Origin: an uncultured Gemmatimonadaceae bacterium
GTDB taxonomy: Bacteria > Gemmatimonadota > Gemmatimonadetes > Gemmatimonadales > Gemmatimonadaceae
NCBI GenBank assembly: GCA_963829055.1
Contig: CAWHHI010000003.1
Span: forward strand, 288,001-352,000
Reading direction: 5' to 3'
DNA length: 64,000 nucleotides
Shown: positions 123 to 64,000 of the stretch, in pieces
Numbering within the stretch: position 1 is the stretch's first letter
Layout of the letters: each line of letters starts with the position of its first letter
The notes under the pieces: model-generated
Databases searched by the model: none
What the model was told of the DNA's origin: nothing
What the model saw: only the letters and a program-made list of their open reading frames with translations
Program-made: the position numbers and the translations under genes

Positions 123-213
123 TCGGCGCAGCGATCGGCGTTAGGCACGGAGGAAACGGCACCAAGCGCGACGGGAGCGAGGCTGAGCCTCGCTCCCGTC
201 GCCGCATCCCGAC

Positions 214-1758
214 CTAGTCACTGCCCGTAGCCGCTCTGAGTGCGAGCGTGAACTTCGCGCCTTGCGATTCCTCGCTTTCTACGGTCAGGTCTCCACCCAT
301 GGCGCGCGCCAGCTCCCGACTGATGGCGAGCCCGAGTCCGATCCCCTGATCACCGTCCGGCGTTAGGTGGCGGTCCACCTGCACGAACGGCTCGAAGATC
401 TCGCGCTGTCGCGACAGCGCGATGCCGCGCCCGGTGTCGGCGACCTGAATACACACCACGCTGTCGACCCGGCCGGATGTGAGCGTGACGCGCCCGCCGG
501 ACGGCGTGAACTTGCACGCGTTGTTGAGCAGGTTCACGAGAATCTGCTGCACCTTGTCGCGGTCCGCCCGCGCGCGGAGCCCCGGGAGCGGACGCTCGAC
601 GTCGAACCGCAGCCCGCGCGCACGCATCTGCGGCGCCACGAGCGACTCGGCCTCCGAGACCACGTCGTCGAGCGGCACGTCCTCCATGCGGATGTCTACG
701 CGCCCAGCTTCCAGGCGCGCGAAGTTCAGGATGTCGTTCACGAGTGAGAGGAGGTGCCGCTGACTGCGCTTGATACGACGCAGGTCGTCGCGCTGATCCT
801 GGCTGATGGCGCCACGGATCCCGAGCTCCATGAGGTCCGCATAGCCGCCGATCGCGTTGAGCGGAGTCCGGAGCTCGTGACTCATCGTCGCGAGGAACTC
901 GCTCTTCGCGCGATTGGCCGTCTCCGCCGCTTCCGTTCTCAGCGCCAGCTCATCCGCCGTCGTTTGAATCTCCTCCTTCTGCATCTCGAGCTCGAGAGCC
1001 TGTGATTGCAATTGCTCCTGCTGCAGCTCGAGCTCCATCGCCTGGTCTTGAAGTTGTGCGTTCTGCTCGCCGAGCAACTGCGCGGCGGCCGCCTGCGCGT
1101 CGGCGTCTCGTGCGAACAGGCGGTTCGTGTAGTTGGCGATACCAGCCGACCCGACGGTGCCGATGACGACCGTTACGACCACGAGTGCGTACCACCACTG
1201 CGAGCGCGTGTCGCGCTCGTCGTACAGCCGGCGCTCCTCCGACACGATCCCCGATATCACGCGACGGATCGAATCCATCACCAATCGACCTGAGTCGGTC
1301 CGCACGATAGCCAAAGCCGCGTCCGCCTGACCAGCGCGCCGCAAGGCAATCGTTCTGTCGAGCTCGGCGAACTTGGCGACGAAGAGCGGCGACAATGCAT
1401 CGAGACGGCGCTGCTGCTCGGGATTGTCGCGCGTCAGCTGGCGGAGAAGCGTCGTGTCTGCCGCGACCGCGCCACGCCCCGCAAGATACGGCTCGAGATA
1501 TCGATCCTCGTTCGTGAGGAGGTATCCGCGCTGCCCGGTCTCCGTGTCCGCGAGATGACTCATCAGCGTTTCTACATGAGCGAGCACTGTGAGTGTGTGC
1601 CTGACGAGCGCGCGACTCTGCCGTAAGCGGTCGATGGTGACGAGCATCACGATCCCGATCACGATGACGATCGCGGTGGATGCAAGCGCCACGAGGCGGC
1701 GACGACTGGCTTCGCGAGGCAGAGAAGAATCGAGCAGAGAAGAGTTCGACACCGACAT
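214..1758 (-). CDS. CHASE3-domain sensor histidine kinase
   Basis: Two TM segments around CHASE3 (DTETGQRGYLLT); H-box FLATMSHELRTPL; N-box NLLNNACKFT; G-boxes DTGRG and GIGLGL. Confidence 0.95.
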   Translation of the reverse strand: MSVSNSSLLDSSLPREASRRRLVALASTAIVIVIGIVMLVTIDRLRQSRALVRHTLTVLAHVETLMSHLADTETGQRGYLLTNEDRYLEPYLAGRGAVAADTTLLRQLTRDNPEQQRRLDALSPLFVAKFAELDRTIALRRAGQADAALAIVRTDSGRLVMDSIRRVISGIVSEERRLYDERDTRSQWWYALVVVTVVIGTVGSAGIANYTNRLFARDADAQAAAAQLLGEQNAQLQDQAMELELQQEQLQSQALELEMQKEEIQTTADELALRTEAAETANRAKSEFLATMSHELRTPLNAIGGYADLMELGIRGAISQDQRDDLRRIKRSQRHLLSLVNDILNFARLEAGRVDIRMEDVPLDDVVSEAESLVAPQMRARGLRFDVERPLPGLRARADRDKVQQILVNLLNNACKFTPSGGRVTLTSGRVDSVVCIQVADTGRGIALSRQREIFEPFVQVDRHLTPDGDQGIGLGLAISRELARAMGGDLTVESEESQGAKFTLALRAATGSD

Positions 1759-2040
1759 GGAGTGAACGCTCGCGCCAATCCGAGCATATTGCTATAGTAG
1801 GACGCAGCAGAATACGCCGCCGAAAAATTGCGCGCCGCCGTTCTGTTTCGGCTTCGCACCGCTCTCGTCGAGCGGCGCGATCGCTTATATCCGCGCTCCA
1901 TTCGCGCTCGTGAGAACCGCTCTGGTTCTCGAGCGTCGTTGTCCATTCATAGTTGTGACGGCGCCATCTGCGCGTCGTCGTGTCGGGACAGGAGCTCACG
2001 CGACGGTCACGCGTGAGCATGTCTCCCGCCGGTCTCACGC

Positions 2041-3921
2041 ATGCTCCGTCGTCTCTCGATTCTTCTCGCCTCGGCTCGTCAGCGTCTCGGCAAACAGCCG
2101 CGCTGGGCCATAGCAATCGTCGCGGTCGCTTGTGTCGCTTTCGGCGTCGTGATCTTCAAGTCCGTCGATCATCGGCGCTCGAACCTTCCGATCCCCGGCG
2201 TACCGTACTCGGAGATCGCTGCTGCGCTCGACGCGCGTCAGGTTCGCGAACTGTCTGTCGAAGATGGGGGAACGCGACTCATCGCTCAGCTCAGCGTTGC
2301 GCGACGCGTTGGCTCCAGCAACGTCACGCGCGTATCCGCCGAAGTGCCGAAGGGCGCGGTCGGACTCACCGACCTCGAGCGCTGGTCGGCTCGCGGTGCG
2401 CGAGTGCAGGTCGAAGGCCCAGGGCGACTCCCCGAAGATCCGGTCTCGTTCGTCGTCTCCTTCGTGCTCATCGGCGTGACACTAATGCTCGTCGCGCGCC
2501 TGAGGGCTGGCGTGGTAAGCGGCGGCAAGAAGTTCGAGAAGGTCGCAGAGGATCGGCAGCTGACGCTCGCGGATGTCGGCGGGGCGAAGGAAGCTCGCGC
2601 GGACCTGCAGGACATCATCTGGTTCCTCAAGGATCCGTCGCGCTTCAAGAAGATGGGCGCGCGCTGCCCCGCCGGCGTCTTGCTCGTCGGCCCGCCGGGC
2701 ACCGGGAAGACGTTGCTCGCTCGCGCAGTGGCCGGCGAAGCGGGCGTTCCGGTATTAGTCGCATCAGGCTCCGAATTCGGTGAGATGTATGTCGGCGTTG
2801 GCGCTCGTCGCGTGCGCGATCTCGCGTCCAAGGCCCGCGCGCTCGGACGCTGCATCATCTTCATCGACGAGTTCGACTCCATCGGCGGCAAGCGTGGTCG
2901 TCCGAACCGCACGAGCGAAGAAGACCTGACGCTGAATCAGCTGCTCGTCGAAATGGACGGCATGGCAGGCGGCGAAGGCATCGTGTGGATGGCGGCGACC
3001 AACCGTGAAGACATGCTCGATCCGGCAGTGCGTCGCCCGGGTCGCTTCGATCGCGTGGTGGAAGTCGGCATGCCGACGGCCGCGGATCGTCTCGAGATCC
3101 TCAAGGTGCACGCGTCCAAGCGGCCGCTCGATACGGACGTCGATCTGCAGGAGCTCTCCACGCTCACCGTCGGCTACTCCGGCGCCGAGCTCGCGAATCT
3201 GCTGAACGAGGCCGCGATCCTCGCGGTGCACTCGGGCAGCGCAGTCATCAGCCGCGCGCATCTCGACCAGGCGCGTGACAAGATCCTGCTCGGCCGCGTG
3301 CGCGCGGGCGTGATCGTGTCCGACGAGGAGCGTCGCCTGATCGCGCTCCATGAGGCCGGGCACGCGGTCGTCGGCCTCCTCACCTGCCCCGAGGATCGTC
3401 TCCACAAAGTCACGATCGAGCCCCGCGGACGCTCCCTCGGCGCCGCGCACTTCGCGCCGGATACCGATCGCCACCTGCACTCGCGCCGCTACCTCGAGGG
3501 CGTGATCGCCAAGGCGTTAGGCGGCCGAGCGGCGGAGCTGGTGTTCCTCGGACCGGATGCGGTGACGTCGGGCGCCGGGAGCGACCTCGTACACGCGACG
3601 GGCGTGGCACGGCGGATGGTGGCGGAGTTCGGCATGAGCGAGGAAGTGGGCCTGGTGTCCGCGGATCCGTCCGCACACGGCGGCGCTCCGTCGGCGCAGC
3701 TGCAGAGCGAGATCGATTCGGCCGTTCGCACGCTGATCGGCCATCAAGCGGCACGCGCGGAGGCGATCGTACGTGACCACGCCAGTGCCCTGGACGCGAT
3801 CGCACGAGCGCTGGTGGAGCGAGGGATGCTCATGGCGGACGACGTGATCGCGATCGCTGAGGAGCATGGAGTGCCGCTCCAGCAGAAGGCCACCGAGAAG
3901 GTCGAGCTGCGCGTCGCCTAA
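2041..3921 (+). CDS. ftsH: ATP-dependent zinc metalloprotease FtsH
   Basis: Two N-terminal TMs, Walker A GPPGTGKT, pore motif MYVG, Walker B IIFIDEFD, SRH RPGRFDR, zinc motif HEAGH. Confidence 0.95.
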   Translation: MLRRLSILLASARQRLGKQPRWAIAIVAVACVAFGVVIFKSVDHRRSNLPIPGVPYSEIAAALDARQVRELSVEDGGTRLIAQLSVARRVGSSNVTRVSAEVPKGAVGLTDLERWSARGARVQVEGPGRLPEDPVSFVVSFVLIGVTLMLVARLRAGVVSGGKKFEKVAEDRQLTLADVGGAKEARADLQDIIWFLKDPSRFKKMGARCPAGVLLVGPPGTGKTLLARAVAGEAGVPVLVASGSEFGEMYVGVGARRVRDLASKARALGRCIIFIDEFDSIGGKRGRPNRTSEEDLTLNQLLVEMDGMAGGEGIVWMAATNREDMLDPAVRRPGRFDRVVEVGMPTAADRLEILKVHASKRPLDTDVDLQELSTLTVGYSGAELANLLNEAAILAVHSGSAVISRAHLDQARDKILLGRVRAGVIVSDEERRLIALHEAGHAVVGLLTCPEDRLHKVTIEPRGRSLGAAHFAPDTDRHLHSRRYLEGVIAKALGGRAAELVFLGPDAVTSGAGSDLVHATGVARRMVAEFGMSEEVGLVSADPSAHGGAPSAQLQSEIDSAVRTLIGHQAARAEAIVRDHASALDAIARALVERGMLMADDVIAIAEEHGVPLQQKATEKVELRVA

Positions 3922-3939
3922 CGTTTCAGCTTGGCAGGG

Positions 3940-4618: not shown

Positions 4619-5059
4619 TTGGCCGCCAAACGTCTCGCCTACCCGACCAGTCGCTACGACCCGTCTCCGCTCGTCGACCTGACGGCGCGCGCTGCGCGCG
4701 AGCGGCTCAGCGCCTCGGCACTCAAGGCGTTCTTCAACATCGTGGCCCGCTGGCAGGTACGCGACGAGGACGCCCGCGGGTTGCTCGGCGGCGTCTCCAA
4801 CGGACCGTACTACAAGATGAAGAAGGATCCCGACCGCGTGCTCGACGCCGACACGCTGCTCCGCATCTCCTACCTCATCGGGATCTTCAAGGCGCTGCAC
4901 ATCCTGCACGGCGACGCGCTGGCCGACGAATGGGTTCGGCTCCCTAACGCGAACCGGATCTTCGGAGGCCAGACGCCGCTCGACTACATGCTCGCCGGCG
5001 GCGTGCCCGCGATGCAGACGGTGCGTCGCCTGCTCGACGCGCGGCGCGGCGGCGTGTGA
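4619..5059 (+). CDS. Xre/MbcA/ParS-type antitoxin (DUF2384 C-terminus)
   Basis: RISYLIGIFKALHIL...ADEWVRLPN.NRIFGGQTPLDYM..GG...VRRLLDARRG; TTG start; GTGA overlap with RES gene. Confidence 0.9.
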   Translation: MAAKRLAYPTSRYDPSPLVDLTARAARERLSASALKAFFNIVARWQVRDEDARGLLGGVSNGPYYKMKKDPDRVLDADTLLRISYLIGIFKALHILHGDALADEWVRLPNANRIFGGQTPLDYMLAGGVPAMQTVRRLLDARRGGV

Positions 5060-5781
5060 CGCCAGCGGCGACGTCCCGCCGGCGGCTGCCGCGCACCACA
5101 CTCGTTCGCGAACACGACACGCACCGCCTCATCCCGTCGCGCTACCGCCCGCGCAACGAGAGCGTCCTCGCGCTCATCGCCGACGACGACGCGCATCTCG
5201 CTGACCTGTTCGACCTCGACCACGCTACCAACGAGCGTCTGCTGGCCGAGCATGACCTGCTGCCCGGCATCGGCGTGCACGAGCTGGTGTTCGGCGTCCC
5301 GAACTCTCGCGTCGTCAACGCCGCATTCGCGCACCCTCACCCGCTCGGCAGCCGATTCAACGGGCCAGAACGCGGCGCGTGGTACGCCGCCCTCGAAGTC
5401 GAGACGTCGCAGGCGGAAGTCGCCTTCCACAAAACGGTCGACCTGGCGGAGATCGGTCGGTTCGAGGACAGCGTCACGTACGACGATTACCTCGCGGACA
5501 TCACCGCCGAGCTGCACGACCTGCGCGACGACCGGCAGTTCGCGAAGTGCCTGGCGCCCGACAGCTACGTCGCCTCGCAGGCGCTGGCCGAGATGCTGCT
5601 CGATGCGGGCGCGTTAGGCGTCGTCTACCCCAGCGTCCGGCGCGCCGGCGGGACCTGCATCGCATGCTTCCGGCCCGCGCTCGTCGCGAACGTGCGGTGG
5701 ACGACGACGTACCGGTTCACGTGGGATGGTACGCCGACGCCGGCCATTGAGGTGGTCACGCTCCCGCGGCGCCCGTCGTGA
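5056..5781 (+). CDS. RES-domain toxin (NAD+ phosphorylase family)
   Basis: SRFNGPERGAWYAA...AEVAFH...SYVASQ.LA...GVVYPSVR..GG.C.A.FRP; coupled to the antitoxin. Confidence 0.9.
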   Translation: MTPAATSRRRLPRTTLVREHDTHRLIPSRYRPRNESVLALIADDDAHLADLFDLDHATNERLLAEHDLLPGIGVHELVFGVPNSRVVNAAFAHPHPLGSRFNGPERGAWYAALEVETSQAEVAFHKTVDLAEIGRFEDSVTYDDYLADITAELHDLRDDRQFAKCLAPDSYVASQALAEMLLDAGALGVVYPSVRRAGGTCIACFRPALVANVRWTTTYRFTWDGTPTPAIEVVTLPRRPS

Positions 5782-7023: not shown

Positions 7024-7184
7024 TTGTCATTCCGAGCGGGGTCGTCATTCCGAGCGAAGGGCCGGAGGCCCGCAGTCGAGGAATCGAGACCAGACGCGGT
7101 AGAGAGGCCTCGATCGGGACGATCGCGATTCCTCGACTCGCGTCGACCGCTTCGCTCGGAATGACAACCCGCTCGGAATGACAA
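7024..7184. repeat. GTCATYCCGAGC palindromic element with doubled termini
   Basis: Two TGTCATTCCGAGCG-like left arms and two CGCTCGGAATGACA right arms; inner GTCGAGGAATCG/CGATTCCTCGAC stem. Confidence 0.9.
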
Positions 7185-7277
7185 TAGCTGAGATACGATC
7201 CTGTTCTTCCGCGTCATCCGCGTAATCGCCGTTCCCCTGTCGACCACAAGGCGGTGATGAAGCATCCGCGCCAATCG

Positions 7278-9169: not shown

Positions 9170-9943
9170 CTACTTCGTCGCGACGGCGATCACGCTGCGC
9201 GACGTCAGCATCGCCGCGCTGTTCATGTCGCGGAGCACGCCCGCATTCTCGGCGACGACATCGGCCTTTTTCGTCTCGAGTCGACGCCGGAACAACGCGT
9301 GCGCGATGCCGATGAACGGCCCCCACAGGGCCAGCAGCGCCCGCGCCGACGTCTTGAAGCGATCGTAGTGCGCGGTGACGGACCGGAAGCCGGCGCGACG
9401 CAGCTGGTACGCGAGGTAGTAGTACGGCACCGGGTTGATGTGCCCGGCCGTGTGGCGTGGGTCGTCACTCGAGATGAGGAGCGGGTCGAACAGGACCGTG
9501 AACCCGGAGTGCAGATAGCGCACGCGCGAATTCAGGTTGAGCACGTTAGGCGTGCTCACGATCGCGACGCCGCCGGGCTTCGTCACGCGACACAGCTCGC
9601 GCGTGAACGCGAACTGGTCCTTGATGTGCTCGATGACCTCGAGACTGCAGACGACGTCGAACGACGCATCGGCATAGGGCAGCGAACCGTCGGCGTTGAT
9701 CGGGTCGCACGGCACGCCCGGGTACCGGAAGAACTGCGGGAAGAGATCGCACGCGGCGAGCACGCCGGACGGCGGCTGCCCGAGCTCCGCCTGCACGGCG
9801 TCGCCGACCATCTTCGAGAAGTACCCTTCCCCGGCGCCGACATCGAGCACCCGCGCGCCCCCACGCAGATACGGCCGCACGAGCGCGAAGACCTTGTCAT
9901 TCGTGCTCTGATGCGAGATGGGTCGAATCTCTTCGGGCGACAT
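9170..9943 (-). CDS. Class I SAM-dependent methyltransferase
   Basis: VLDVGAGEG, FDVVCSLEVIEH, KPGG..IVSTPN. Confidence 0.9.
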   Translation of the reverse strand: MSPEEIRPISHQSTNDKVFALVRPYLRGGARVLDVGAGEGYFSKMVGDAVQAELGQPPSGVLAACDLFPQFFRYPGVPCDPINADGSLPYADASFDVVCSLEVIEHIKDQFAFTRELCRVTKPGGVAIVSTPNVLNLNSRVRYLHSGFTVLFDPLLISSDDPRHTAGHINPVPYYYLAYQLRRAGFRSVTAHYDRFKTSARALLALWGPFIGIAHALFRRRLETKKADVVAENAGVLRDMNSAAMLTSRSVIAVATK

Positions 9944-15524: not shown

Positions 15525-17627
15525 GTGAGCTTGTTCATGTCCAGCGCTTCCTTCCGTTCTCCGGTTCGTCTTGCCGCCATCGTCGCTGCGCTCTGCGTCG
15601 CGGCGGCGTCCTCGGCGGTCGCGCAACGCGCGTCAAAGGTTCTCGACCGCGCGAATCTCGACACCACCTGTGCGCCGTGCACGGACTTCTACCAGTTCGC
15701 GAACGGTGCGTGGCTTACGCAACCACACCATTCCTCCCGACAAGAGCGGACTCGGCAGCTTCGGAATGCTGAGCGACAAGAACCAGGAGGTCGTTCAGAA
15801 AATCGTCATCGACGACGCGAGCCTCGCACGCGACGGCGAGACCAAGCAGGGCACGAACGAGTGGAAGATCGGCACGTTCTACATGGCGTGCATGGACACC
15901 ACTTCCCTCGACGCCGCTGGCTTCAAACCCATCAAGCCGCTGCTCGATGCGATCGCGGCCGCGAAGACCACGGACGATGTGGTGAAGCTATTCGGCAATA
16001 GACGCGGTGGGGGAGGTGGCGGCGGCGGGCGCGGCGGTGGCGGCGGCTTCGCCCCCTTCGGTCTCGGCCCACAGACTGATCCGAGAAACAGCACGATGGT
16101 CATTCTGTCGGCGAATCAGGGCGGGCTCATCCTGAACCGCGAGGACTACCTCGATACGAACGACCGCGCGACGAAGCGGCGGCAGCAGTACACCGCGCAC
16201 GTTGCGCGATCGCTGCAGCTCATCGGCGAGTCGGAGGCGCAGGCCAAGGCCGATGCGCGACTCGATCCTCGCGCTCGAGACGAGGATCGCGAAGATCTCG
16301 ATCCCGCAGGCGGACCTGCGCGACCCGAACGCGACGTACCACAAGATGACGCTGGCCGAGTTCGGGGCGATGACGCCGCACTTGAACTGGACGCGGTACC
16401 TCGCAGCAGCAGGGCGCGAAGACGACGGCCGACGTGAACGTCCGCACACCGACGTTCTTCACCGCGCTCGATTCGCTCGTGCCCGCGGTGTCGGTGGATA
16501 CCTGGAAGGCGTACCTGCGCTGGCATGCGACGAGCGGCGCGATGGGCTCGCTCAGCTCGCCGTTCCGGAAGGAAGCGTTCCGCTGGCAGCAGGTGACCAC
16601 CGGCGTGCAGCAGCCCGAGCCGCGGCTCAAGCAGTGCGCTGCCGCGACGAACGCGGCGTTAGGCGAGGCCGTCGGCGAGGACTGGGTCAAGCGCAACTTC
16701 ACGCCCGCCGCCAAGGCGCGCGCGACGAAGATGGTGGACAACCTCGTGTCGGCGCTGCGCGATCGCATCCGCCAGCTCGACTGGATGAGCGAGCCGACGA
16801 AAGTCCAGGCGGTCGCGAAGCTGGACGCGTTCCTCCGCAAGGTCGCGTACCCGGACAAGTGGCGCGACTACTCGACGCTCGCGATCGTGCCCGGCTCGTA
16901 CTTCGAGAACCAGCGCGCCGTCGCCGAATGGAACTCGGCTCGCAGCTGGGCGCGGGTCGGCAAGGCGCCGGACCGCAGCGAGTGGAGCATGACGCCGCCG
17001 ACGGTGAACGCGTCGTACAGCTCGTCGCTCAACCAGATCCAGTTCCCAGCGGGCATCCTGCAGCCGCCGTTCTTCGATCCGAACGCCGACGACGCCGTCA
17101 ACTACGGCGCGATGGGCGCCGTCATCGGACACGAGATGACGCACGGCTTCGACGACTCCGGCCGGCAGTTCGACGCGAAGGGCAACCTGCGCGACTGGTG
17201 GACGCCGGAGGATGCCGCGAAGTACAAGTCAGCCGCACAGCTCGTCGTCGATCAGTTCAACGGCTTCACGGTCGTCGACGACCAGTCGCACGTGAACGGC
17301 CGCCTGACGTTAGGCGAGAACATCGCCGACCTGGGCGGTCTGACGGTCGCGTACTTCGCGCTGCACAAGGCGATCGGCGACAAACCGCAGCCGAAGATCG
17401 ACGGCTTCACGCCCGAGCAGCGGTTCTTCCTCGCGTGGGCGCAGATCTGGCGCGAGCTGCAGCGGCCGGAGGCGGTGCTCCAGAACCTGAAGACGAACCC
17501 GCACTCGCCGGGCAAGTGGCGCGTCAACGGACCGCTGGCGAACATGCCGGAGTTCAAGGCGGCCTGGGGATGCAAGGAGGGCGACGCAATGGTGCGCCCC
17601 GACAGCCTGCGGGCGAGAATCTGGTAA
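15525..17627 (+). CDS. M13 family metallopeptidase (frameshifted)
   Basis: Signal peptide, PCTDFYQFANG.W, VNASY, FPAGILQPPFF, GHEMTHGFD, GENIADLGG, PHSP. Confidence 0.95.
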
Positions 17628-24037: not shown

Positions 24038-27000
24038 ATGCCCAACCCAGATCCGCTTTCCGTTCTCCGTCACGCTCGCGCTGCTCGTCCTCGGCTTCGG
24101 TCTCGCCGCATCGCCGCGCAGGGCTACGACCCATCGCTCTTCCAGGAGATGCGCTGGCGGATGATCGGACCGTTCCGCGCCAGTCGCACGAAGGCCGGCA
24201 CCGGCGTGCCGTCGCAGCCGAACGTGTTCTACATCGGCGTCGTGAACGGCGGCGTGTGGAAGACGACCGACTACGGCCGCACCTGGGACCCGATCTTCGA
24301 CGAGCAGGGCACCGGTTCGGTCGGCGCGATCGCCGTCGCACCGTCGGACCCGAACATCGTCTACGTCGGGAGCGGCGAGGGACTGCAGCGCCCCGACCTC
24401 TCCGTCGGCGACGGCATCTACAAGTCCACCGACGCCGGGAAGACGTGGACGCACCTCGGCCTTCGCGACGGACAGCAGATCCCGCAGATCATCATCGACC
24501 CGCGCGACCCCAACCGGCTGTTCGTCGCCGTGCTCGGCCATCCGTACGGGCCTAACGCGGAGCGCGGCATCTTCCGCTCGACCGACGGCGGCCGGACGTT
24601 CGAGAAGGTGCTGTACAAGGACGAGAACACCGGCGGCATCGACGTCGCGTTCGATCCGCAGAACGCGCAGACCATCTACGCCGTGCTGTGGGAAGCTCGT
24701 CAGGCGCCGTGGGAGAACGGCGCGTTCAGCGGGCCGGGCTCCGGAATGTTCAAGTCCACCGACGGCGGCACGACGTGGCGTCAGATCGGCCAGGGACTGC
24801 CGACGTTCGACCGGCGATGGACTCGGGCGCATCGGCATCGGCATTGCGCCGAGCCTGCCGAGTCGCGTGTTCGCGACGGTGGATGCGGCGCGGAACGGTG
24901 GGTTGTATCGGTCGGACGACGGCGGCGAGACGTTCACGCAGGCGACCGAGCGATGCGCGCGTCGTGTCGCGCGCGTCGGACTTCGCCGAAGTGAAGGTGA
25001 GTCCGAAGAATCCGGATATCGTGTTCACGGCGAGCGTCGTCGCGTGGAAGTCCACCGACGGCGGCAAGACCTTCTCGGCGCTACGCGGCGCGCCCGGCGG
25101 CGACGACTATCACCGATTCTGGATCAACCCCGACAACCCGGACATCATCCTGCTCGATCGCCGACCAGGGCGCGGTGATCACGCGTGAATGGCGGCAAGA
25201 CGTGGAGCAGCTGGTACAATCAGCCGACGGCGCAGATGTACCACGTGATCCACGGACAATGCGTTCCCGTACCGCGTCTGCAGCGGGCAGCAGGAGTCGG
25301 GCTCCGCGTGCGTGCTGAGTCGCAGCGACAACGGTCGCATCACGTTCATGGATTGGCATCCGGTGTCGGTGGAGGAGTACGGCTACGTCGCGCCGGACCC
25401 GCTCGACCCCGACATCGTGTACGGCGGCAAGGTGACGCGTTATGATCGCCGCACGGGTCAGGTGCAGAACGTGGCGCCGAAGCTGTCGCGGTCGCCCGAC
25501 TATCGCGCGCTGCGCACGGCGCCGCTGCTGTTCTCACCGGTGAATCCGCGGAAGCTGTACTTCGCGACGAACACCGTCTGGCAGACGACGAACGGCGGCC
25601 AGAGCTGGCAGGAGATCTCGCCGGACCTCACGCGCCGCGACTCCGTCGTGCCGCCTAACGTCGGCAAGTATTCCGGAGGAGCGCGGCGCGACAGCGCGGC
25701 ATCCGGGCGTGGTGTACACGCTCGCGCCGTCGTACGTGAAGGAGAACATCATGTGGGCCGGCAGCGACGACGGGTTGATCCACGTGACGTTCGACGGCGG
25801 CACGACGTGGAAGGACGTGACGCCACCGGCGCTCCGGACACGTCCGTGGAGCAAGATCTCGATCATGGACGCGTCGCACTTCGATACGCTCACGGCGTAC
25901 GCGGCGATCAACACGCTGCGTCTCGACGACATGCGTCCGCACCTCTACCGCACGCGCGATGGCGGAAAGACGTGGACGGAGATCGTCGCCGGCATCGACT
26001 CGGGCGCGATCACGAACGTCATCCGCGAGGACCCGAAGGCGCGCGGGCTGCTGTACGCCGGGAGCGACCGTCAGGTGTGGGTGTCGTTCGACGACGGCGA
26101 TCACTGGCAGTCGCTGCGGCTGAACATGCCGGCGCACGTCGATCCGCGATCTCGTGATCAAGGACGACGACGTGGTGATCGGCACGCATGGGCGGTCGTT
26201 CTGGATTCTGGATAACGTGACGCCGCTGCGACAACTCGGCAGCGGGACTGGGGACTGGGGACTAGCGGGAACTCGACGGGAAGCTGCCGGCGTCTAGCTT
26301 CCCGCAGTCCCGAGTCCCCAGTCCCCAGTCCCGCTTGTTCAGACCGCAAACAGCCACCCGAATCCGGTACAGCCAGTGGCCCGACACCCCACTCCCGCCG
26401 GACGAGCCCGCGGCGGAGAATCCGCCGGACGGCGCGATGATCGACTACGTCATCGGCACCGGCGGCGCCGGCGGGAAGCCGGTGACGCTCGAGATCCTCG
26501 ACGGCACGACGGCTCGTTAGGCGGTACGCGAGCACCGACACCGCCATGGCGCCCGCCGACATCGGCAACGTCCCGCGCTACTGGATCCGCCCCACGCAGG
26601 TGCTGTCGGCCGAGCCGGGCATGCACCGGTTCGTCTGGGACCTGCGCTACCCGGCGCCCGGCGTCCTCAACGTCCAGTACCCGATCTCGGCCACGCCTAA
26701 CAACACGCCGCGCGAGCCGCGTGGACCGTGGGTCGTGCCAGGCACGTACACGGTTCGCCTCACGGTGAATGGCCAGACATACACGCAGCCGCTCACCGTG
26801 CGCATGGACCCGCGCGTGAAGGCGTCCGCCGCGACGCTCGCGCGGCAGTTCGCACTGTCGAAGGGCGTCTACGACGACATCAACCGCACGCGAGGCGTGC
26901 TCGACGAGCTCCGCACGCTGCGCGCGAACCTCCGCGAGCTTCGAGGACGCGCGACCGGCGACTCACGGCCGCGCTCGATTCGATCGATCGTGCCGCCGCC

Positions 27001-34285: not shown

Positions 34286-36736
34286 CTATTCGTCGCGCAG
34301 CGCCACCACTGGATCGACCCGCGTCGCACGCATCGCCGGCACGAACGTCGCCAGCGCCGCCACTCCCACCAGCGTCGTCGCCACGACCAGGAACGTGCTC
34401 GGGTCACTCGGCTGGACTCCGAAGAGCTGACTCGCGATGAGGCGCGTCAGACCGAATGCGCCGGCGAGCCCGATCGCGACGCCGATGCCCACCAGCAACA
34501 ACCCTTGCCGCATGACCATCCCCAGCACGTTCCGGCGCGCCGCGCCTAACGCCATGCGGATACCGATCTCGTGCGCACGCTGCGTCACCGAGTACGACAT
34601 CACCCCGTAGATTCCGATCGACGCCAGCACCAGCGCCATCGCGGCGAACAGTCCGAGCAGGAGCATCGCGAATCGACGCTGGCCCATCGAGGCGGTGATG
34701 TTCGCGTCCATCGTGGCGATGTTCGCGATCGGCACGTCGGCGTCGATGTTCCGGAGCGCGGACCGAACCGCGGGGAGCATGCGGGTCGGATCCCCGGTCG
34801 TGCGTACCGCGAACCCCATGAATCCGCCCACGAACCCGGACGCCGCCCGGTACGGCAGGTAGAGCTGGACCCGGTTCTCGGCGTCCAGGCCCTCGTGCTT
34901 CGTGTGCCCCACCACGCCCACGACCGTGATCCAGTCGACCACTGAATCGCGCTGCGGATTCCCGAACGCGATGCGCTTGCCGATCGGGTCGGCGTTAGGC
35001 CAGTAGCGCTTGACCATCTCATCGTCCACGACCGCGACCGGCGGGCCGCTCGCGCCGTCCTGCTCCGTGAACAGGCGGCCCTTGATGAGCGGGACCTTGA
35101 GCGCCGCGAAGAACCCGGGGCTCACCACGCGCAGGTCGCCCCACGGACCGGGTTTGTTGGGCGGCGGCTGATACCCCTCGACGGCAAAGCTCCCGGTCCT
35201 CCCACCGCCGCCGAACGGCAGCGTGGACGTGATGCCCACGCCAGTCACGCCCGGGACCGTGCGCACCGCTTCGACGGCGCGATCGAAGTACTGGATGCGA
35301 GCCGTGTCCGAACCATAGCGGGCGTTGGGAATCGACACCGTGAACGTGAGCAGACTGCTGGAGTCGAATCCCGGATTGACGTGCTGCAGCAGCGCCAGGC
35401 TCTTGATCAGGAGCCCCGCACCGGTGAGCAGCGCCAGCGCCAGCGCCACCTCGGCGACCACGAGCACGCGTCGGAGCGCATGCCCGCTCCGATCGCTCGA
35501 CGAGCTCCGGCCTCCCTCCTTGAGCGTCTCCTGGAGGTTCGTGCGCGACGTCTGCACGGCCGGCGCGAGGCCGAACAGCAGCCCGGTCACGACCGAGACG
35601 CCTAACGTGAATAGCGCGACGACCCAGTCGATCCGCAGCTCGTTGATGCGCGGTACGTTGGCCGGCTTGAGCGCGATCAACCCCTTCATGCCGAGCCAGG
35701 CCAGGCCCAGCCCGAGCACGCCACCCAAAACCGCCAGCAGCATGCTCTCCGCGAGCAGTTGGCGGAGGAGGTCCCCGCGCTTCGCGCCGAGCGCGGCGCG
35801 GATGGCGACTTCCTTGATCCGGGACGCCGCGCGCGCGAGCAGCAGGTTCGCCACGTTGGCGCACGCGATGAGCAGCACGAATCCGACAGCGCCGAGCAGG
35901 ACGAGCAGCGCCGGACGGATGTCGCCGCTCACCTTCTCGTTCATGGACGTGACCTTGAGCGTCCAGTCCGTGGGGTAGCTGTTCGGGAACTGCGCCTTGA
36001 GCTGACTCGCGAACGCCTTCATGTCGCTGCGCGCACGCTCGATGGTGATCGCGGGCTTGAGCCGCGCGACCAGCGTCAGGAACTCGCTCGTGCGGTTGTT
36101 GTCGGAGAACTGCTCCGGCGTCAGCGCCAGCGGGGTCCAGAGATCCACGGGACGTCCCCTGAAGTCGCCGAACGTCTGCTGGCATCACCCCGATCACGTC
36201 GTACGGCTCGCCGTTCAGCGTGATCGGCTTCCCGATGACGGAGCGATCAGCGCCGAATTGCCGCTGCCAGAACCCGTCGCTCAGGACCACGACTCTGTTG
36301 TTCCCGGGGTGTCCTCTTCCGGCGTGAAGCTGCGGCCTATGGCCGGTGCCACGCCGAGCGTCTTGAAGATCAGCCCTGACGCGCGCGTACCCTGAAGGCG
36401 CTGCGGGTCGCCGCTGGTACCCGTCAGCGTAGGTGCCCACCCGGTCATCACGAACACGCCGTCGAAGATCGGTGCCTTGTCCCGGAGATCGCGGAACCCC
36501 GGCGGCGATGCACCAGCCTCGAGGTTGTTGAGCGACGGATAGAAGTGGTCGACGATCACGAGCTGCTCGGGGGCCCGATACGGGAACGGCCGCAGCAGCA
36601 CCGTATTCACGACGCTGAAGATCGCGGTGTTCGCGCCGATGCCGAGCGCGAGCGTGAGTAGCACGATGGCCGAGAAGCCGGGCGTCTTGCGCAGCCGGCG
36701 CAGGGCGTACCGGACGTCCTTGAGCAGCGTATCCAT
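34286..36736 (-). CDS. ADOP-type duplicated ABC permease (about 2 frameshifts)
   Basis: [65 protein letters not shown]. Confidence 0.95.
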
Positions 36737-36899
36737 ATCGGAAACCCCGCGACTCGGGGCGTGTTGGCGGGAAACGATCGCGAATGGAGCGATGTTAGGT
36801 AGACAGCCGGGTCGGGGCGATGGTTCGCAGGTCCAGCGGTCGCTCCCGTGCGACGAGTGGTCACCCCCGTGTGTCGGGACGATGAGCGCTCGTACTTCC

Positions 36900-37123
36900 G
36901 CCACTACCGGCCTCCCGCCGCGTGCGCGCTCGACCCGCTTCCCGAAGCGCATGCCGTTGAACGCCTGAAGGGAGCCGAGCAGCGCGTAGCTGAATCCCGC
37001 TACCGGTCGAGGAGCTCGTCGAACGTGTTAGGCACCTCGAGCGACACGACGAGGAGCGTGATCTCGAACCCGAACACGGCGTCGCTCAACCCCTCGATGC
37101 GCGACATCTCGCGACCACGGAGC
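36900..37123 (-). pseudogene. TMEM175 (DUF1211) potassium-channel remnant with internal deletion
   Basis: LRGREMSRIEGLSDAVFGFEITLLVVSLEVPNTFDELL then a jump to C-terminal-like VAGFSYALLGSLQAFNGMRFGKR; no start codon. Confidence 0.7.
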
Positions 37124-53850: not shown

Positions 53851-56424
53851 ATGGGCTCGACTCTGTTGCACGACCTGCGCTATGGTGCTCGCGCACTTCG
53901 CGGCGCTGCCGGCTTCACGCTGGTGGCCGTTTCCACGCTGGCACTCGGCATCGGGGCCAACACGGCAATGTTTGGTGTCGTGGATGCGCTGCTCTTCAAG
54001 CCGCCGGCGGAAGTCGTGAGTCCGCGCGACGTCATGAAGGTTCGTGTCGCGGTGCCGCCCCGTGGCGGCGAAGGAAGTCCCGTGCTGTCGTCGGTGCTCT
54101 CCTATCCCGATTTCGTCGACCTGCGAACGCATGCGCGCGGCTTCACGTCGATTGCCGCCTACGCCCGCAACTCGCTGAGCATCGGCGAAGGGACCGAAGC
54201 CAAGCAGCAGCAATCGTTGCTCGTGACAGGGACGTACTTCCCGCTGCTCGGCGTTCGGCCGGCCATCGGCCGGTTGATCGGGCCGACCGATGACCTGGAG
54301 AACGCCGCGGTCCCGGTGGCTGTACTGAGCTGGGACTTCTGGCAGCGCTCGTACTCCGCGGACGCGGCGGTGATCGGCCGGGCGATCCGGATCAACGGGC
54401 GGCCGTTCACCATCATCGGCGTGGCGCCCGAGCATTTCGGCGGCACCGACCTCGACGCGCCGGCGCTCTGGGTGCCCATGGGAACCTCGACCACTCTGGG
54501 CTATGACGCGCGGATGATGCGCTCGCGATTCGCGTCGTGGCTGTCGATCGTTGGCCGACTCGCGCCGGGCACGTCGTTGGAGCAGGCGCAGGCGTCCGCT
54601 CAGGCGGCGCTGCTCGCGGCGCGCGATGCCGGCGAGGCTCCGACGCCCGGTGACGGTCCGCTGGGTGCCGCGCCCGGCGGCGGCGAGGTCCGCGTCGAGA
54701 TCGGCGGACCTGGCCCGGGCGGGCCGGGCAACGGCCCGCGAGCGGCGCCGCCGCCGAGGCAGGTGCGCCTAACGCCGCTCGGTGGGAGCGGCACGTCGGC
54801 ACTGCCGTCGCCGTTCGGCGGGACGCAGCCGGTTCCAGTGTCGCTGTGGTTCCTGGCCGTGACGGGTGCCGTGCTGCTCATCGCGTGCGCGAACGTCGCG
54901 AACCTGTTGCTCGCACGAGCGGCACGGCGCGAGCACGAGATCGCGGTACGGCTCTCGCTGGGCGCGCCGGCCTGGCGCCTAACGCGCCAGCTCATGATCG
55001 AGAGCCTGCTGCTGGCGGCGCTCGGGGGCGCTGGCGGACTGGTGCTCGCGTTCGCCGGCGTGGCGGTGTTGCCGAGTGTGGTGGAGATGCCGCCGATGCC
55101 ACCGTTTCTCGACGCGCGCGTGCTGGGGTTCACGGCTGCGCTGACGCTCGTGACGACGCTCGCGTTCGGGCTCATCCCGGCGATCCGGCTGGCGCGCACG
55201 GATCTGCAGCGCGTGCTGTCGTCGACGGGACGCTCGCGGTCTGGCCGGTCGTTCGGCAAGAACGTTCTGGTCGTCGCGCAACTCGCGGCGTCACTGGTGC
55301 TCGTCATCGGCGCCGGGCTGTTCATCCGGAGCCTGCGGAACGTTCGCGCCGTGAACACGGGATTCGCGGCGGAGCAGGTCGCGTTCGCGTCTGTCGAGGG
55401 TGGCCAGCGGATGACGCGCGAACAGTCGGCGGAATTCTGGCAGCGGGCGGTGGAGCGGGTCCGCGCGCTCCCGGGCGTCCGCAGCGCCTCGCTGGGCGCG
55501 GTGATTCCGTTCGAGATGAACATCATGATGCCCGTCGACGTGCCGGGGTACCAGTCGTCCGACGGCCGCCCGACGCCGGCGCAGATCGACTTCGCGGGGA
55601 CGGACTACTTCTCGACGTTAGGCATCCCCATCCGGCAGGGACGCGCGTTCACGGCCGAGGACCGCGAGGGCGGTGCGCCGGTGGTGATCATCAACGAGAC
55701 GCTGGCACGGCGGGCGTGGGGCGGCGCGTCGCCGATTGGCCGGTGCCTGCGTATCGGCGGCGGTGGCGACGGGCCATGCATGGAGGTGGTCGGCGTGGCG
55801 GCGGATGCGCGGTATGCGGACGTGACGCAGCCGTCACCGCCGTTCGTCTACCGCGCGCTGGCGCAGCGGCCGCGCATGGCGCCGCCGATGACGATCATGC
55901 ACTTCCGCTCGAGCGGCGATCCAGCGGCGGTCGCGGGAGTCGTCAGGCGCGAGCTCCAGGCGCTGGCGCCGAGCGTCCCGTTCGTGCGTGTGGTGCCGAT
56001 GATGGACCTCATCGCGCCGCAGCTCGCGCCGTGGCGGACGGGGACGCTCATGTTCTCCCTGTTCGGCGTGCTCGGGCTCGCGCTGGCGGCCATCGGATTG
56101 TACGGCGTGATCTCGTTCCTCGTCGCTCAGCGTACGCGGGAGATGGGTGTGCGGATAGCGCTCGGGGCGCGCCGCGCCGACGTACTCACGCTCGTGCTGG
56201 CACAAGGCGGGCGGCTGATCGTGACGGGCATTGTGATCGGCGCCGCGGTCGCGATGGCGTCGACGCGGTTATTCGGCTCGATGATGTACGGGGTGAGCGC
56301 GGTGGATCCGGTCGTCTACATCGGGACGGCGGCGTTGTTAGGCGTGGTGGGGTTCGTGGCGCTCATCGTCCCGGCGCGACGGGCCACGAGAGTCGATCCA
56401 CTGGTGGCGCTTCGGGCGGAATAG
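53851..56424 (+). CDS. ADOP-type duplicated ABC permease (intact)
   Basis: [59 protein letters not shown]. Confidence 0.95.
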   Translation: MGSTLLHDLRYGARALRGAAGFTLVAVSTLALGIGANTAMFGVVDALLFKPPAEVVSPRDVMKVRVAVPPRGGEGSPVLSSVLSYPDFVDLRTHARGFTSIAAYARNSLSIGEGTEAKQQQSLLVTGTYFPLLGVRPAIGRLIGPTDDLENAAVPVAVLSWDFWQRSYSADAAVIGRAIRINGRPFTIIGVAPEHFGGTDLDAPALWVPMGTSTTLGYDARMMRSRFASWLSIVGRLAPGTSLEQAQASAQAALLAARDAGEAPTPGDGPLGAAPGGGEVRVEIGGPGPGGPGNGPRAAPPPRQVRLTPLGGSGTSALPSPFGGTQPVPVSLWFLAVTGAVLLIACANVANLLLARAARREHEIAVRLSLGAPAWRLTRQLMIESLLLAALGGAGGLVLAFAGVAVLPSVVEMPPMPPFLDARVLGFTAALTLVTTLAFGLIPAIRLARTDLQRVLSSTGRSRSGRSFGKNVLVVAQLAASLVLVIGAGLFIRSLRNVRAVNTGFAAEQVAFASVEGGQRMTREQSAEFWQRAVERVRALPGVRSASLGAVIPFEMNIMMPVDVPGYQSSDGRPTPAQIDFAGTDYFSTLGIPIRQGRAFTAEDREGGAPVVIINETLARRAWGGASPIGRCLRIGGGGDGPCMEVVGVAADARYADVTQPSPPFVYRALAQRPRMAPPMTIMHFRSSGDPAAVAGVVRRELQALAPSVPFVRVVPMMDLIAPQLAPWRTGTLMFSLFGVLGLALAAIGLYGVISFLVAQRTREMGVRIALGARRADVLTLVLAQGGRLIVTGIVIGAAVAMASTRLFGSMMYGVSAVDPVVYIGTAALLGVVGFVALIVPARRATRVDPLVALRAE

Positions 56425-59957: not shown

Positions 59958-60035
59958 CCTATCCTTGGTCTGAGACGGCACGCCGGACGAACGGTCCGGC
60001 CCAATGGATCGGCCCCTTCCAGCACAGCCAAACCC

Positions 60036-60311: not shown

Positions 60312-60337
60312 CGCGAGCGCCGCACTGGCCGGCGCTG

Positions 60338-60575: not shown

Positions 60576-61171
60576 GGTCTCGGTCGCGGTCGGATTCGCG
60601 TAACTGCGCCGCGCGGTACGAGGGGTCGAGCAGCGCTCGCGGGTTGTCGCGGTAGCGCATCGCGGCCTCGTACACGCGCTGATCGACTTCGGTGAACCGA
60701 CGCATCGTCTCGGCCACGAGCGCCGCGCCCTTCTCCGCCGCGTAACGATCGAGGCGGTCCTTCACCCAGCTGATGTGGCCGACTTCGTCCTCGATCATCC
60801 GCTGGAGCGTCTCGATCACCGCGGGATGCATGTTCGGCCACTTGAGGTGCGCGCGGAAGTGGCGGATGACGCGTCGCTCGAACACCTGCGTGAGGGTGAG
60901 GATCTCGAGGAGGCTCGTCGGCGTGCCGATCTCGGCGTAGTAGCGCGTCTGATACGTCTCGGCGACGCGACTTCGGCGTGCCGCCGACTTTCAGAATCGT
61001 CTGCGTCCACAGCCACGCGTGGTTCGCCTCTTCCGCGCAGTGCTCGGTGAGATGCACGCGCAGATCGTCGTCGTCGGTCTCGCGCGCGAGGCGACCCATG
61101 ACGAGCCCTCCCGCGAGCTCCGACTCGCGGTAGTAGCTCAGGATCCAGAGGTCGTTTTCGCTAATTTCCAC
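60576..61171 (-). CDS. Ferritin-like diiron protein B (frameshift near 60968)
   Basis: AAGGAG RBS and GTG; YYRESE...AEEANH...VFERRV...EDEVGH = E, ExxH, E, ExxH ligand pattern. Confidence 0.85.
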
Positions 61172-61896
61172 CGGGAATGGACTCCTTGAGATGTTCGGTC
61201 GGCGCGAGCCCGCAGACGAGGCGGATCTTCCGGTTCACCGCCATGATCGCCTCGAAGTCGTTCTCCTCGGCGACCGGGACCTGCGACGACGTCACTCCCA
61301 TAGTGGCGGAATCGCTCCGCCGCCGCGAGCACCTGCGCGGCGACGTCGGGGTCGGCGGTCGATCCGCTTCTTGAGCACGTCGCCCGCGCTCGCGCTGTGG
61401 CGGAACTCGTCGCGCGACATGTAGCCTAACAGGTCACGCAGCACCGGCTCGTTCGTGCGTCGCGACATGCGCAGGAAGAAGTACGCGGCGAAGAGCTCCG
61501 AGCACATGAAGTTCGTGAGATGCGCGATGAGCTCGTCTTCGACGTATTCGATGGCGAGGGCACGCCCCCGTGCGGCGACGAGTGTCGCTCGCTGAAACTT
61601 CCTCGCGCTGGAAGCCGACGCGGTCGAGGTAGCGCGTGAGGGCCGTGAAGTGCTTGAGCCCCTCGTACAGCTCCATGCTGAGCACAGCCGTCGCATCGAT
61701 GTCATCCCACAGCAGCTGCATGAGACGCGCGGCGTACACGGGCAGATAGCCCTCGATGAGCGCCGCGTCATGCAGCGCCTGATGCAGCTCGCGCTCGGAC
61801 GCCGCGACGCGCTGGTCGATCGCGTCCCACGCGATGGTGGTGTCGAGCGGCCACGCGTTCTCTTCGGTGGCGCGGAGATGAGACTTCGTAGATCAT
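61161..61896 (-). CDS. Ferritin-like diiron protein A, AurF/acyl-ACP-desaturase-like (frameshifted)
   Basis: N-terminal W....IAWD.ID; LIEGY...YEGLKH...MCSE...RDEFRH; ATGA overlap with the methyltransferase. Confidence 0.8.
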
Positions 61897-62790
61897 TGCG
61901 CACGCTCGCTGGTGTCCGGCTGACGTCGTCGTTCGATCTTGCGAGCGACGACGAGCGTCTGCAACCCGACGTCGTCCTGCCGAGTGGTGGCCTCGTGAAA
62001 GCCCGCGATGCGAAGCCAGCGCACGAGCTCGTCGCCGGACGATAGTGCGTGTGGAGCTCCGCGAGCTGTCGCATCAGGTAGTCGGCGATGCGATCGGCCT
62101 GCATGCCGGACGTGACGAACGTACCGCCGTGCCGAAGACGGTCGTGACAGTTCCTGTAGAACTGCACGAGCAGACTCGTCAGCGAGGAATTCACCGAGCC
62201 CTGTGGAGACGATGACATCCAACTCTGACGGGAAACGCCTTCAGATCGAGGGCGTCGCCGTGGGTGAACACGAAGCGATCGTCTTCGCCCGCGAGCTGAC
62301 GCGACAGCTCGAGTGGCGCTGGATCGAGGTCCACACCGAAGAATGTGCTTCGCGCGTAGACCGCGGGGAGCTCATCCTCGATCCGCTTGGCGGCCACCAC
62401 GAGATCGCGCGCAATGCCGCACGGGACCGAGAGAACGCGGAACGGCGCGGTGTCCGGACCGCGCGGATCATTGGCCTTTCGCGTGTGCACCGCACGCGCG
62501 GCGGCGACGATCTCGTGCTGCGTGTGATGGAACCGGTTTCGCATGGAGCGCGCCCCACGCATTCGAAGCAGCATCGCGTCGAGCACGCGGCCGATGCCGA
62601 AGCGCCCACTCGCTTCGTTGCGATATACGTGATCAGCGAAGCGATAGCTGCCGGAGTTCTCGATCCCTTCGCGCGCGAGGTCGCTCGTGCGCATGAGCGC
62701 GTAGATCGGGAGCAGATGCAGCTTGCCCTCGCGCAGCAGCTTTCGCGGGATCGAGTCCGAGGTGCGCGTGCGGTTGTGCAGCGGCGTCAC
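61893..62790 (-). CDS. SAM-dependent methyltransferase, YnbC C-terminal (Methyltransf_20)-like (frameshifted)
   Basis: SGSYRFADHVYRNEASG..GIGRVLD, VLSVPCG.ARD, GVDLD, GDAL, DVIVSTGL.EFL.D; GTGA overlap with the ligase. Confidence 0.8.
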
Positions 62791-64000
62791 GCACGTCGCT
62801 CCGAGCCGACGCGCGGCGTCGCGCCAGCAGGCCGCGTGGCACGCTCGTCGACGCCATGTTGCGCGAGCACGGCCAGCACCCATCGCTCGAGGCCGAACGC
62901 GACGCATCCGCTGTGCGCTGGTCCGTCGGCCGCCAGCGAGATGTCGAATCGCGTGCCGAAGAAGTCGTGATGGTGGTTGAACGACGCGGCGGCAATAGCG
63001 CGGCCAGTCGCCGTCGACGGTGAGCAGCAGCTCGTACTTGAGCGCGCCCGCCTGCTGCATCAGCCGTCGGCCTTCGTCGCCGGCGGTGAAGAACGGGTCG
63101 GTCGCTGGCTCGATCCTGCCGTCGAGGTCGAGCGTCGTCGATGAGGTCGGACGACCTGCCTGACGAGCGACTGCCTAACGTCCTCCACTTGCTCGCGGCT
63201 GCCGAGCACGATGATCTCGCGCATGGTGAAGTCCCAGAGGCGCTCGAGCGGTACGTGGTTGCCGTCCTCGAAGCGGTAGCAGTCGGCCGCGTGCGGTGAG
63301 GATGGTCGGCGTCCGAGCCGACGGTTCTTCCCTGACCATTCGGGGTAGGCGTGATAGCAGACGGCTGGGGAGAGTGCGTGGCGGGATGCCGAGTCGATCG
63401 GGTCGATCATCCCGATGCCAGACAGCAGGTCCCTCGTTCGCACGATCGACGGGCTTCGCTCGGGATGACAGACGAGCGTTAGGTGCTGTGGGAACGATGC
63501 GACCTGTCCGGCGCGCTCGAGGACGCCCAGGTCGATCAGGCTCGGGTAGCGGTGCTCCGTGGCGCCGAGTGCGCGCGCCCATTCGAGCACGCGTGTGGTC
63601 GATCGGCGCGAGGACGTCGAGCGCGAGTCCCGACAGCGAGACCTGGCCAGCTGCCGTTACGACTACGTCGCCTCGCTCCCGCAGCACGCCAAGCGGCGAC
63701 GCGAATCGTGACCGGTCGCCTCGACGCTCGAACAGCCGATCGGGCGGCGCGGCTGACGCGGCCCGACGAAGCGTCCGGGTGAAACGCCAGCCACGATCGT
63801 TGCGATCGTGCGGAAGTTCGCGAGGCTGCACCGCGCGGTCGGGAATGCGCGCGCCCAGCGACTTCTCCACCGCGGCGATGAGGTCGAGGATGCGGAGCGA
63901 GTTCATGTAGCCGTCCTCGAACAGCCGCGTGTCGCGTCCGACGTTCGCGGCGCCGCCCAGCAACGTGACGTTGATGAAGTGTGCGAGCTGACGCTCGAGC
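62787..64000 (-). CDS. Amino acid:[carrier protein] ligase (class II SerRS homolog) with N-terminal carrier-protein domain; 5' end outside the window (frameshifted)
   Basis: ACP part: LFEDGYMNSLRILDLIAAVEKSLG..IPD....LANFRTI; ligase part: SFPQ, LSPAVCYH, CYRFE, RLWDFTMREI, ATDPFF, KYEL, SFNHH, HSGCVAFGLERW. Confidence 0.88.

Follow-up and report, generated by a model that had tools for sequence, protein, structure and literature searches.

GTTAGGC, a hyper-abundant, strand-balanced word of a Gemmatimonadaceae genome and a possible uptake-sequence-like self tag

The seven-nucleotide word GTTAGGC (GCCTAAC on the opposite strand) is enriched throughout the genome of an uncultured Gemmatimonadaceae bacterium, labelled G000, which was examined starting from a stretch of 64,000 nucleotides (CAWHHI010000003.1, positions 288,001-352,000 of the forward strand), referred to here as the window. 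The enrichment is real, and its pattern of abundance, spacing and lack of orientation calls for a reader that recognises the sequence irrespective of orientation and brings no further benefit once a site is present every few hundred bases. The word was interpreted, with about even confidence, as an uptake-sequence-like self tag spread by molecular drive, in preference to a nucleoid-protein site. A literature search that left supplements (with possible k-mer tables) and most subscription journals outside its scope found no description of the word, which is apparently undescribed.

Exact copies of the word were counted on both strands of the window and compared with 100 dinucleotide shuffles; the window has 56 copies, whereas the shuffles averaged 2.4 and never exceeded 7. 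This recount reproduced exactly the 56 copies, all 12 named coordinates and the split of 27 GTTAGGC and 29 GCCTAAC given in the original prediction, which had been made from the letters of the window, and counted 11 variants with A, T or G as last base where about 10 had been given; its ~69% GC (67.4% measured) and its expectation of ~7 copies were both too high. The form CGTTAGGC was found at 49 of the 56 sites. The G000 genome comprises 7.78 Mb in 20 contigs, and its RpoC shares 80-90% identity with records from Gemmatimonadaceae and Gemmatimonadales. It contains 5,630 copies of GTTAGGC, present on all 20 contigs at 0.57-0.93 per kb, corresponding to 27 times the expectation of a Markov model of order 2 and 10.5 times that of order 3. 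With models of order 4 and 5 the ratio drops to 1.43 and 1.02, since the shorter words on which they are built come from the motif itself (GTTAGG accounts for 7,103 of 7,392 TTAGG). The loss of enrichment under a higher-order Markov model, previously named as a sign that the word is not special, is thus formally seen at orders 4 and 5, but under a null that is circular; the valid null is the codon-preserving one described below, under which the enrichment persists. The consensus is YGTTAGGB with a strict GTTAGG core, preceded by C in 89% and by T in 8% of cases and followed by C (5,630), T (861), G (462) or A (150). A further variant, CGTTATGC, was enriched at 583 copies compared with 52 under a core-masked null that is biased low. 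Membership of a longer repeat was rejected, as beyond the -2/+8 flanks only codon periodicity was seen and no 27-mer occurred more than 4 times. For comparison between genomes, those with at least 100 CGTTAGGC per Mb were classed as rich. All seven genomes of the genus are rich, at 352-682 CGTTAGGC per Mb, and the six other than G000 are assemblies of 260-1,170 contigs, so that the word is not a long-read artefact, the possibility behind one of the checks previously named. An assembly artefact was accordingly rejected, the word also being present in named Gemmatirosa plasmids.

Genes were called with our own gene finder (7,593 genes, 74% coverage) and the codon test was performed on 5,480 confident genes, with the expectation calculated from amino-acid sequence and codon usage. 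The confident genes contain 3,352 copies of the word against 165 expected, an approximately 20-fold excess found in all four stop-free frames: NNG-TTA-GGC (1,475 of 12,648 opportunities), C-CTA-AC (557 of 2,724), G-CCT-AAC (917 of 2,320) and GTT-AGG-C (403 of 3,957). The word additionally forms 195 of 700 TAA stops (as GCCTAAC) and 183 of 1,441 TAG stops. GGC follows 1,488 of 2,528 TTA codons, bearing out the earlier claim that the word overrides codon bias. The presence of the signal in all open frames and in stop codons indicates that DNA, rather than mRNA or protein, is the level at which it is read. Across the 44 rows of an rpoC alignment, unrelated rich lineages carry the word at the same permissive codons. 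Retention was assessed in 253 alignments with genus relatives, 184 of them with G001 and the other 69 partly reusing one region. At ~47% fourfold-site divergence, the TTA of TTA-GGC was kept in 75% of cases (n=63) compared with 15% for the CTT of CTT-GGC (n=26), and the CCT of CCT-AAC in 77% (n=31) compared with 33% for CCC-AAC (n=12); CTA-ACG was kept in only 36% (n=25). Site turnover in the genus comparison amounted to 99 common and 131 lineage-specific sites.

Strand assignment by GC skew gave a leading-to-lagging ratio of 1,836:1,674 for the copies of GTTAGGC in G000 (52% leading), compared with 365:98 (79%) for the KOPS-like (FtsK-orienting polar sequence) word GGGNAGGG in the same genome. 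The small leading-strand excess arises from gene strand, the sense-strand ratio being 730:527 in co-oriented and 492:391 in head-on genes, and no effect was left once gene strand was controlled. In 20 stretches across the chromosome of the complete genome G300 the strands were 133:138, and in five viral records that carry the word they were 22:33, 39:32, 21:12, 15:13 and 7:6, which is not polar. The word is therefore strand-balanced and non-palindromic, unlike Chi and KOPS, as originally described. A Chi- or KOPS-like signal, recognised by a translocating helicase-nuclease or translocase, would account for a non-palindromic 8-mer of Chi-like density; given this lack of polarity it was considered the least probable reading of all, and an AddA-like query from G000 (RecB by family and AddB were not searched) matched 8 of 64 genomes, three of them poor, showed no connection with motif level, and did not match the rich G300. 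Spacing was compared with 100 permutations of the sites among equivalent codon opportunities (3,464 sites, 22,516 opportunities). Observed-to-null ratios of site-pair counts were 0.12 below 50 bp, 0.16 at 50-100 bp, 0.48-0.50 at 100-200 bp, 0.75-0.81 at 200-300 bp, 0.87 at 300-400 bp and ~1 beyond. Neighbours closer than 100 bp were depleted in all four orientations (101 compared with 395 expected). No periodicity of 5-595 bp was found in pair distances, which were examined up to 5 kb, and a 200-bp periodicity hinted at by spacings in the window (185, 400, 606...) is absent genome-wide.

In the window, 36 of the 56 sites overlap called genes, 30 of them in frame (xLG, xPN, xLT) and 6 as a stop codon; no called gene covers the remaining 20, the gene finder under-calling in this frameshift-rich assembly. 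The start positions of all 56 sites (27 on the + and 29 on the - strand) and the sites placed in genes are as follows.
Starts: 140, 3516, 3916, 5613, 5798, 7805, 7990, 9545, 10154, 11421, 12446, 13210, 14573, 16658
Starts (continued): 17309, 18306, 18827, 19613, 22075, 22469, 22880, 24550, 25653, 26516, 26695, 29076, 29753, 30705
Starts (continued): 30890, 32308, 33737, 34544, 34994, 35600, 37027, 37419, 38238, 38638, 40157, 40364, 41043, 45933
Starts (continued; the last site ends at 63179): 46092, 47057, 48320, 50807, 52014, 54767, 54977, 55617, 56337, 58459, 59721, 60128, 61424, 63173
3516..3522, + strand: GCG TTA GGC (Ala-Leu-Gly) in an FtsH-type protease gene (2041-3921, + strand)
3916..3922, - strand: GCC TAA C, the stop codon of the same FtsH-type protease gene
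5613..5619, + strand: GCG TTA GGC in a RES-domain gene (5056-5781, + strand)
9545..9551, + strand: ACG CCT AAC (Thr-Pro-Asn) in a methyltransferase-domain gene (9170-9943, - strand)
16658..16664, + strand: GCG TTA GGC in an M13 peptidase gene (16434-17627, + strand)
17309: ACG TTA GGC, second site in the same M13 peptidase gene
26516..26522, + strand: CGT TAG GC, the TAG stop of a short called gene
34544, 34994 and 35600 (34544..35606): Ala-Leu-Gly, Trp-Pro-Asn and Thr-Leu-Gly in a MacB/FtsX permease gene (34286-36148, - strand)
54767, 54977, 55617 and 56337 (54767..56343): Arg-Leu-Thr twice (CGC CTA ACG), Thr-Leu-Gly and Leu-Leu-Gly in a MacB/FtsX permease gene (53851-56424, + strand)

The RES-domain gene belongs to an Xre/MbcA-RES toxin-antitoxin pair at 4619-5781. 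The M13 peptidase (15571-17627) and MacB/FtsX (34286-36952) genes are each broken into two frames; split genes are frequent in the G000 assembly, with long-read indels the likely cause. Positions 7027-7185 hold palindromes GTCATTCCGAGCG...GGAATGAC resembling repetitive extragenic palindromic (REP) elements, related 8-10-mers of which occur ~700-1,000 times genome-wide; they may belong to the type of repeat associated with Ssn nucleases. A search of the window against Rfam returned no match.

The distribution of the word was determined in an even sample of the phylum (n=400), in which 16 genomes were rich: 12 of 93 in the family of G000, 4 of 166 in a second family (all of genus g73) and 0 of 141 elsewhere; G013, G079, G118, G199, G443, G468 and G565 were counted only in denominators, as motif-poor. 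G030, of a third family, has 119 CGTTAGGC per Mb. In a quick RpoC tree, rich and poor lineages were interleaved, genus g40 comprising three rich genomes and one poor one (G289). None of 251 Acidobacteriota was rich (highest value, 61 per Mb), and among the 41 of 110 metagenome loci examined (at least 4 kb), the dispersed-rich ones had a median of 37-77% identity to G000 proteins and gave no sign of another phylum. Two spellings could be distinguished: a tolerant one, allowing T or G at the last base and accompanied by CGTTATGC, in G000, G014 and the phage G415, and a strict-C one without CGTTATGC in G300 (271 of 274), genus g40 (69 of 73) and the phage G414. At least five viral records among the 203 viral loci listed from three pair scans carry dispersed copies: G414 (55 in 45.6 kb), G415 (71 in 82 kb), G671 (33 in 28.6 kb), G672 (28 in 50 kb) and G673 (13 in 68.8 kb). 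G414 and G415 are tailed phages with integrases whose copies match the strict and the tolerant spelling, respectively; the probable hosts of these two phages were assigned from GC content, spelling and a few common genes. No tyrosine integrase was found in G671-G673, which are 58-62% complete (CheckV). A protein common to two motif-rich phages and the host was tried as the reader and rejected, being a PKD/beta-helix protein in one phage and without a Pfam match in the other. Named Gemmatirosa kalamazoonensis plasmids hold 52 and 36 copies per 50 kb, and a 15-kb satellite-like element of G300 (L137, contig C4; integrase, HTH_17 and DUF5906 proteins), whose open reading frames repeat at +14,997, is at host density with 19 sites in 20 kb.

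Within G000, the three largest gaps between sites (31-50 kb) use none of 116 codon opportunities, compared with 3,219 of 10,735 overall. These motif-free stretches are given below.
C6:5441-55037
C11:7377-46790
C6:591809-623330

They reach up to 73% GC, their sampled genes are mostly non-phage, and their position near contig ends indicates either islands or mis-joins; the motif might thus be useful for checking how contigs are binned. No site was found across 8.4 kb around one 16S gene, nor inside a second 16S gene.

Several mechanisms were weighed against these observations. In the favoured reading, that of an uptake-sequence-like self tag, point substitutions would have introduced YGTTAGGB on both strands, in spacers and genes as well as in stop codons, and the candidate reader would be a sequence-preferring part of the DNA-uptake machinery. 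Incoming fragments with the word would recombine more often, spreading it by molecular drive as for the DNA uptake sequences (DUS) of Neisseriaceae and the uptake signal sequences (USS) of Pasteurellaceae. These bacteria would then be competent with biased uptake, one copy per few hundred bases would saturate the benefit and thereby produce the spacing, and the reader would have been gained or lost several times. Biased uptake combined with drive predicts how abundant and how spaced such sites are, that foreign DNA has few of them and that phages follow the host dialect, as described for the two families (PMC7811141, PMC2397512, PMC6776037). A second USS within 100 bp gives no uptake gain in H. 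influenzae and drive is expected to space sites evenly (PMC7811141), DUS are absent from recently acquired genes and enriched in the core genome (PMC2397512), and temperate phages of Pasteurellaceae gather USS in the host dialect (PMC6776037). Uptake genes are present, with ComEC in 63 of 64 genomes, PilM in 59 of 62 and a ComEA-type domain in 5 of 5.

A number of observations weigh against biased uptake. ComEC, PilM, pilins and ComEA fail to separate rich from poor genomes, N-methyl pilins and FimT/GspH are found irrespective of motif status, the pilus locus is laid out identically in the 12 rich and the 9 poor genomes compared, and the 77 extracted minor pilins formed no larger cluster restricted to rich genomes. 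ComP (PF16732) was not found in any of 5 genomes, in a search without a positive control; no reader protein was found among the named families examined, and the literature yielded no evidence of competence for this phylum. Inverted pairs resembling terminators, which are typical of DUS, are depleted (8 '+-' neighbours below 40 bp among 5,610), and an exclusion of 300 bp implies short fragments. The spacing is weak in a pooled set of 23 G300 stretches and 2 stretches of named Gemmatirosa plasmids (~22 pairs per 100 bp below 400 bp compared with ~30 beyond). Core-gene-rich contigs C16 and C4 show an opportunity use of 0.26, compared with 0.33-0.34 on C5, C9 and C20; the rpo/rps region and core-rich contigs show 0.25-0.26, compared with 0.30 overall, and use rises with the GC content of third codon positions from 0.20 to 0.36 (values for contigs, not for a defined core set). 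Finally, G672, a 50-kb phage with terminal repeats in which no tyrosine integrase was found, carries 28 sites. A FimT-like minor pilin split in two frames was noted at G000:C8:164923-165334 (L641); its C-terminus GRVRR resembles what we take to be the GRxR DNA-binding tail of FimT.

Alternatively, an intracellular protein (a nucleoid organiser, a recombination or repair loader, or the reader of a defence self-mark) might bind the word in its unmodified form and act over 100-300 bp, ~1 site per kb being kept by selection on any resident DNA; this was considered possible, if somewhat unlikely. Orientation-free spacing and retention fit such a binder equally well, phages, the 15-kb satellite of G300 and the Gemmatirosa megaplasmids carry the word at host density, opportunity use is lowest around the skew switch of C16 (0.235), and HIP1 (highly iterated palindrome 1) has been linked to chromosome structure (PMC5861425). 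However, no candidate protein was found, pair distances show no 5-595 bp periodicity, the edge of the exclusion is gradual, unlike that of a footprint, and most of the phylum lives without the word. Fourfold divergence is also flat at all distances from sites (0.46-0.50), so that there is neither a mutation-rate gradient nor a sign of local repair. A site of methylation or other modification spreading by modification-directed repair, as proposed for HIP1, appeared highly improbable. CTAG is strongly avoided in G000 (0.29), and CTAG avoidance goes with very-short-patch repair; MmeI-type and BREX-type (bacteriophage exclusion) sites have a similar asymmetric form. However, RGATCY, ATGCAC and CCAGN7TCA are the only motifs in the single-molecule real-time (SMRT) methylome published for G. 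kalamazoonensis (PMC3974934), yet its plasmids are motif-rich, and a search for PF00145 C5 methylases that was positive in a poor relative and in 9 of 14 controls found none in any of 4 rich genomes, of which one is 100% complete. Among the three options originally offered, a methylation link was thus not supported, while an uptake tag and a nucleoid-protein site both stand, the uptake tag being favoured.

The spelling of the word also matches the integron core site GTTRRRY, as had been pointed out. Because the word is an attC core box, an integron integrase or a domesticated copy was considered as reader or writer, which on balance seems very unlikely. The attC arrays of motif-poor relatives start with GCCTAACA and end with CGTTAGGC (44 of 55 boxes), although these arrays were mostly chosen for holding the word, and independently picked integrase loci gave CGTTAGGC in 4 of 12 (3 of 3 and 1 of 9). 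The second enriched word of G000, CGTTATGC, is likewise an attC box; CGTTAGAC, found in 8 of 55 attC boxes, is not enriched (24 compared with 24), nor are boxes such as GTTAGAC that integrases serve. G000 possesses a small integron at C20:204500-208960 (L017), with a divergent integrase at the family cut-off (265.7 bits) and four attC-like pairs; a second integrase fragment lies at C4:2862-3170. Integrases over the cut-off were found in 18 of 31 relatives, rich and poor, none being found in the rich G397, and those of rich genomes form no clade (25 rows, FastTree). An attC site would pair an RYYYAAC with a GTTRRRY box at a distance of 50-140 bp, the two folding into a hairpin that follows a small gene, and the dispersed copies do not have this arrangement: they are unpaired ('-+' neighbours below 100 bp, 22 of 5,610) and stand in frame in rpoC. 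The match in spelling is real, but the copies dispersed through the genome do not constitute attC sites, and the presence of integrases does not follow that of the motif. As the chance of matching one of the few common boxes is estimated at roughly 1 in 4,000, a link between the word and attC is plausible. One version of it, which we regard as rather doubtful, is that a DNA receptor of soil Gemmatimonadaceae evolved to recognise the cassette core box, fishing cassettes from environmental DNA as single strands, the natural attC substrate; the bias would then have copied the box thousands of times into the chromosome and into resident phages, and the resulting self tag would pass from lineage to lineage together with its reader. 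Such cassette fishing is thinkable by analogy with Vibrio cholerae, in which transformation supplies integrons with single-stranded cassettes (PMC12614218). Tandem attC-like arrays of the form GCCTAAC...CGTTAGGC with units of ~350 bp were observed in the IMG/VR viral contigs L223, L235, L209, L224, L213, L199, L253, L257 and L226, possibly representing phage-borne cassette arrays; in the two annotated contigs the arrays adjoin phage genes, which in L223 encode HNH, Gam and an annealing protein and in L235 RecT, a methylase and two integrases. In the Acidobacteriota G583, G483 and G455, CGTTAGGC counts were one-sided (168:6, 73:9 and 6:58), as expected of large cassette arrays.

To our knowledge, uptake of DNA with a sequence preference has been described in two proteobacterial families, both of host-associated bacteria, and HIP1 in cyanobacteria; GTTAGGC, from a phylum common in soil, would bring the hyper-abundant words to three. 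Its uneven spread over close relatives provides natural contrasts with and without the word for a search for the reader and for tests of drive against selection, and G. kalamazoonensis KBS708 is a cultured, fully sequenced motif-rich strain in which uptake and binding are already testable. Foreign islands are recognisable by their lack of the word, which might also help to link phages with their hosts, and, were the attC match causal, integron cassette capture would be linked to uptake specificity.

Among known systems, the attC core box (GTTRRRY) is identical in spelling, including the preceding C, and has CGTTATGC in common with the word; unlike attC, however, the dispersed copies stand singly and in frame within core genes, do not vary at the bases where attC does, and bear no relation to whether an integrase is present or to its ancestry. 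Chi and KOPS/AIMS (architecture imparting sequences) are likewise over-represented non-palindromic octamers, but these are strand-biased (PMC5861425) and GTTAGGC is not. HIP1 of cyanobacteria (GCGATCGC) is similarly a hyper-abundant octamer in genes, conserved beyond codon expectation and of unresolved function (PMC5861425); HIP1, however, is palindromic and reported to be recognised by methylases (PMC4390886 and PMC13756078), whereas the present word is asymmetric, and no methylation of it is reported for the single motif-rich strain whose methylome has been published. The closest resemblance is to USS and DUS, which the word shares in occurring at ~1 per kb on both strands and in coding sequence, in being non-palindromic, retained, evenly spaced and scarce in foreign DNA, and in having dialects common to temperate phages (PMC2397512, PMC7811141 and PMC6776037). 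It differs from them in sequence and phylum, in its length of 7-8 bp, in the lack of terminator inverted pairs, in an apparent lack of core enrichment, in being patchy across genera instead of family-wide, and in that ComP was not found in the five genomes searched without a positive control. In its genomic pattern the word resembles DUS and USS most but is not a member of either, being another word without the terminator feature.

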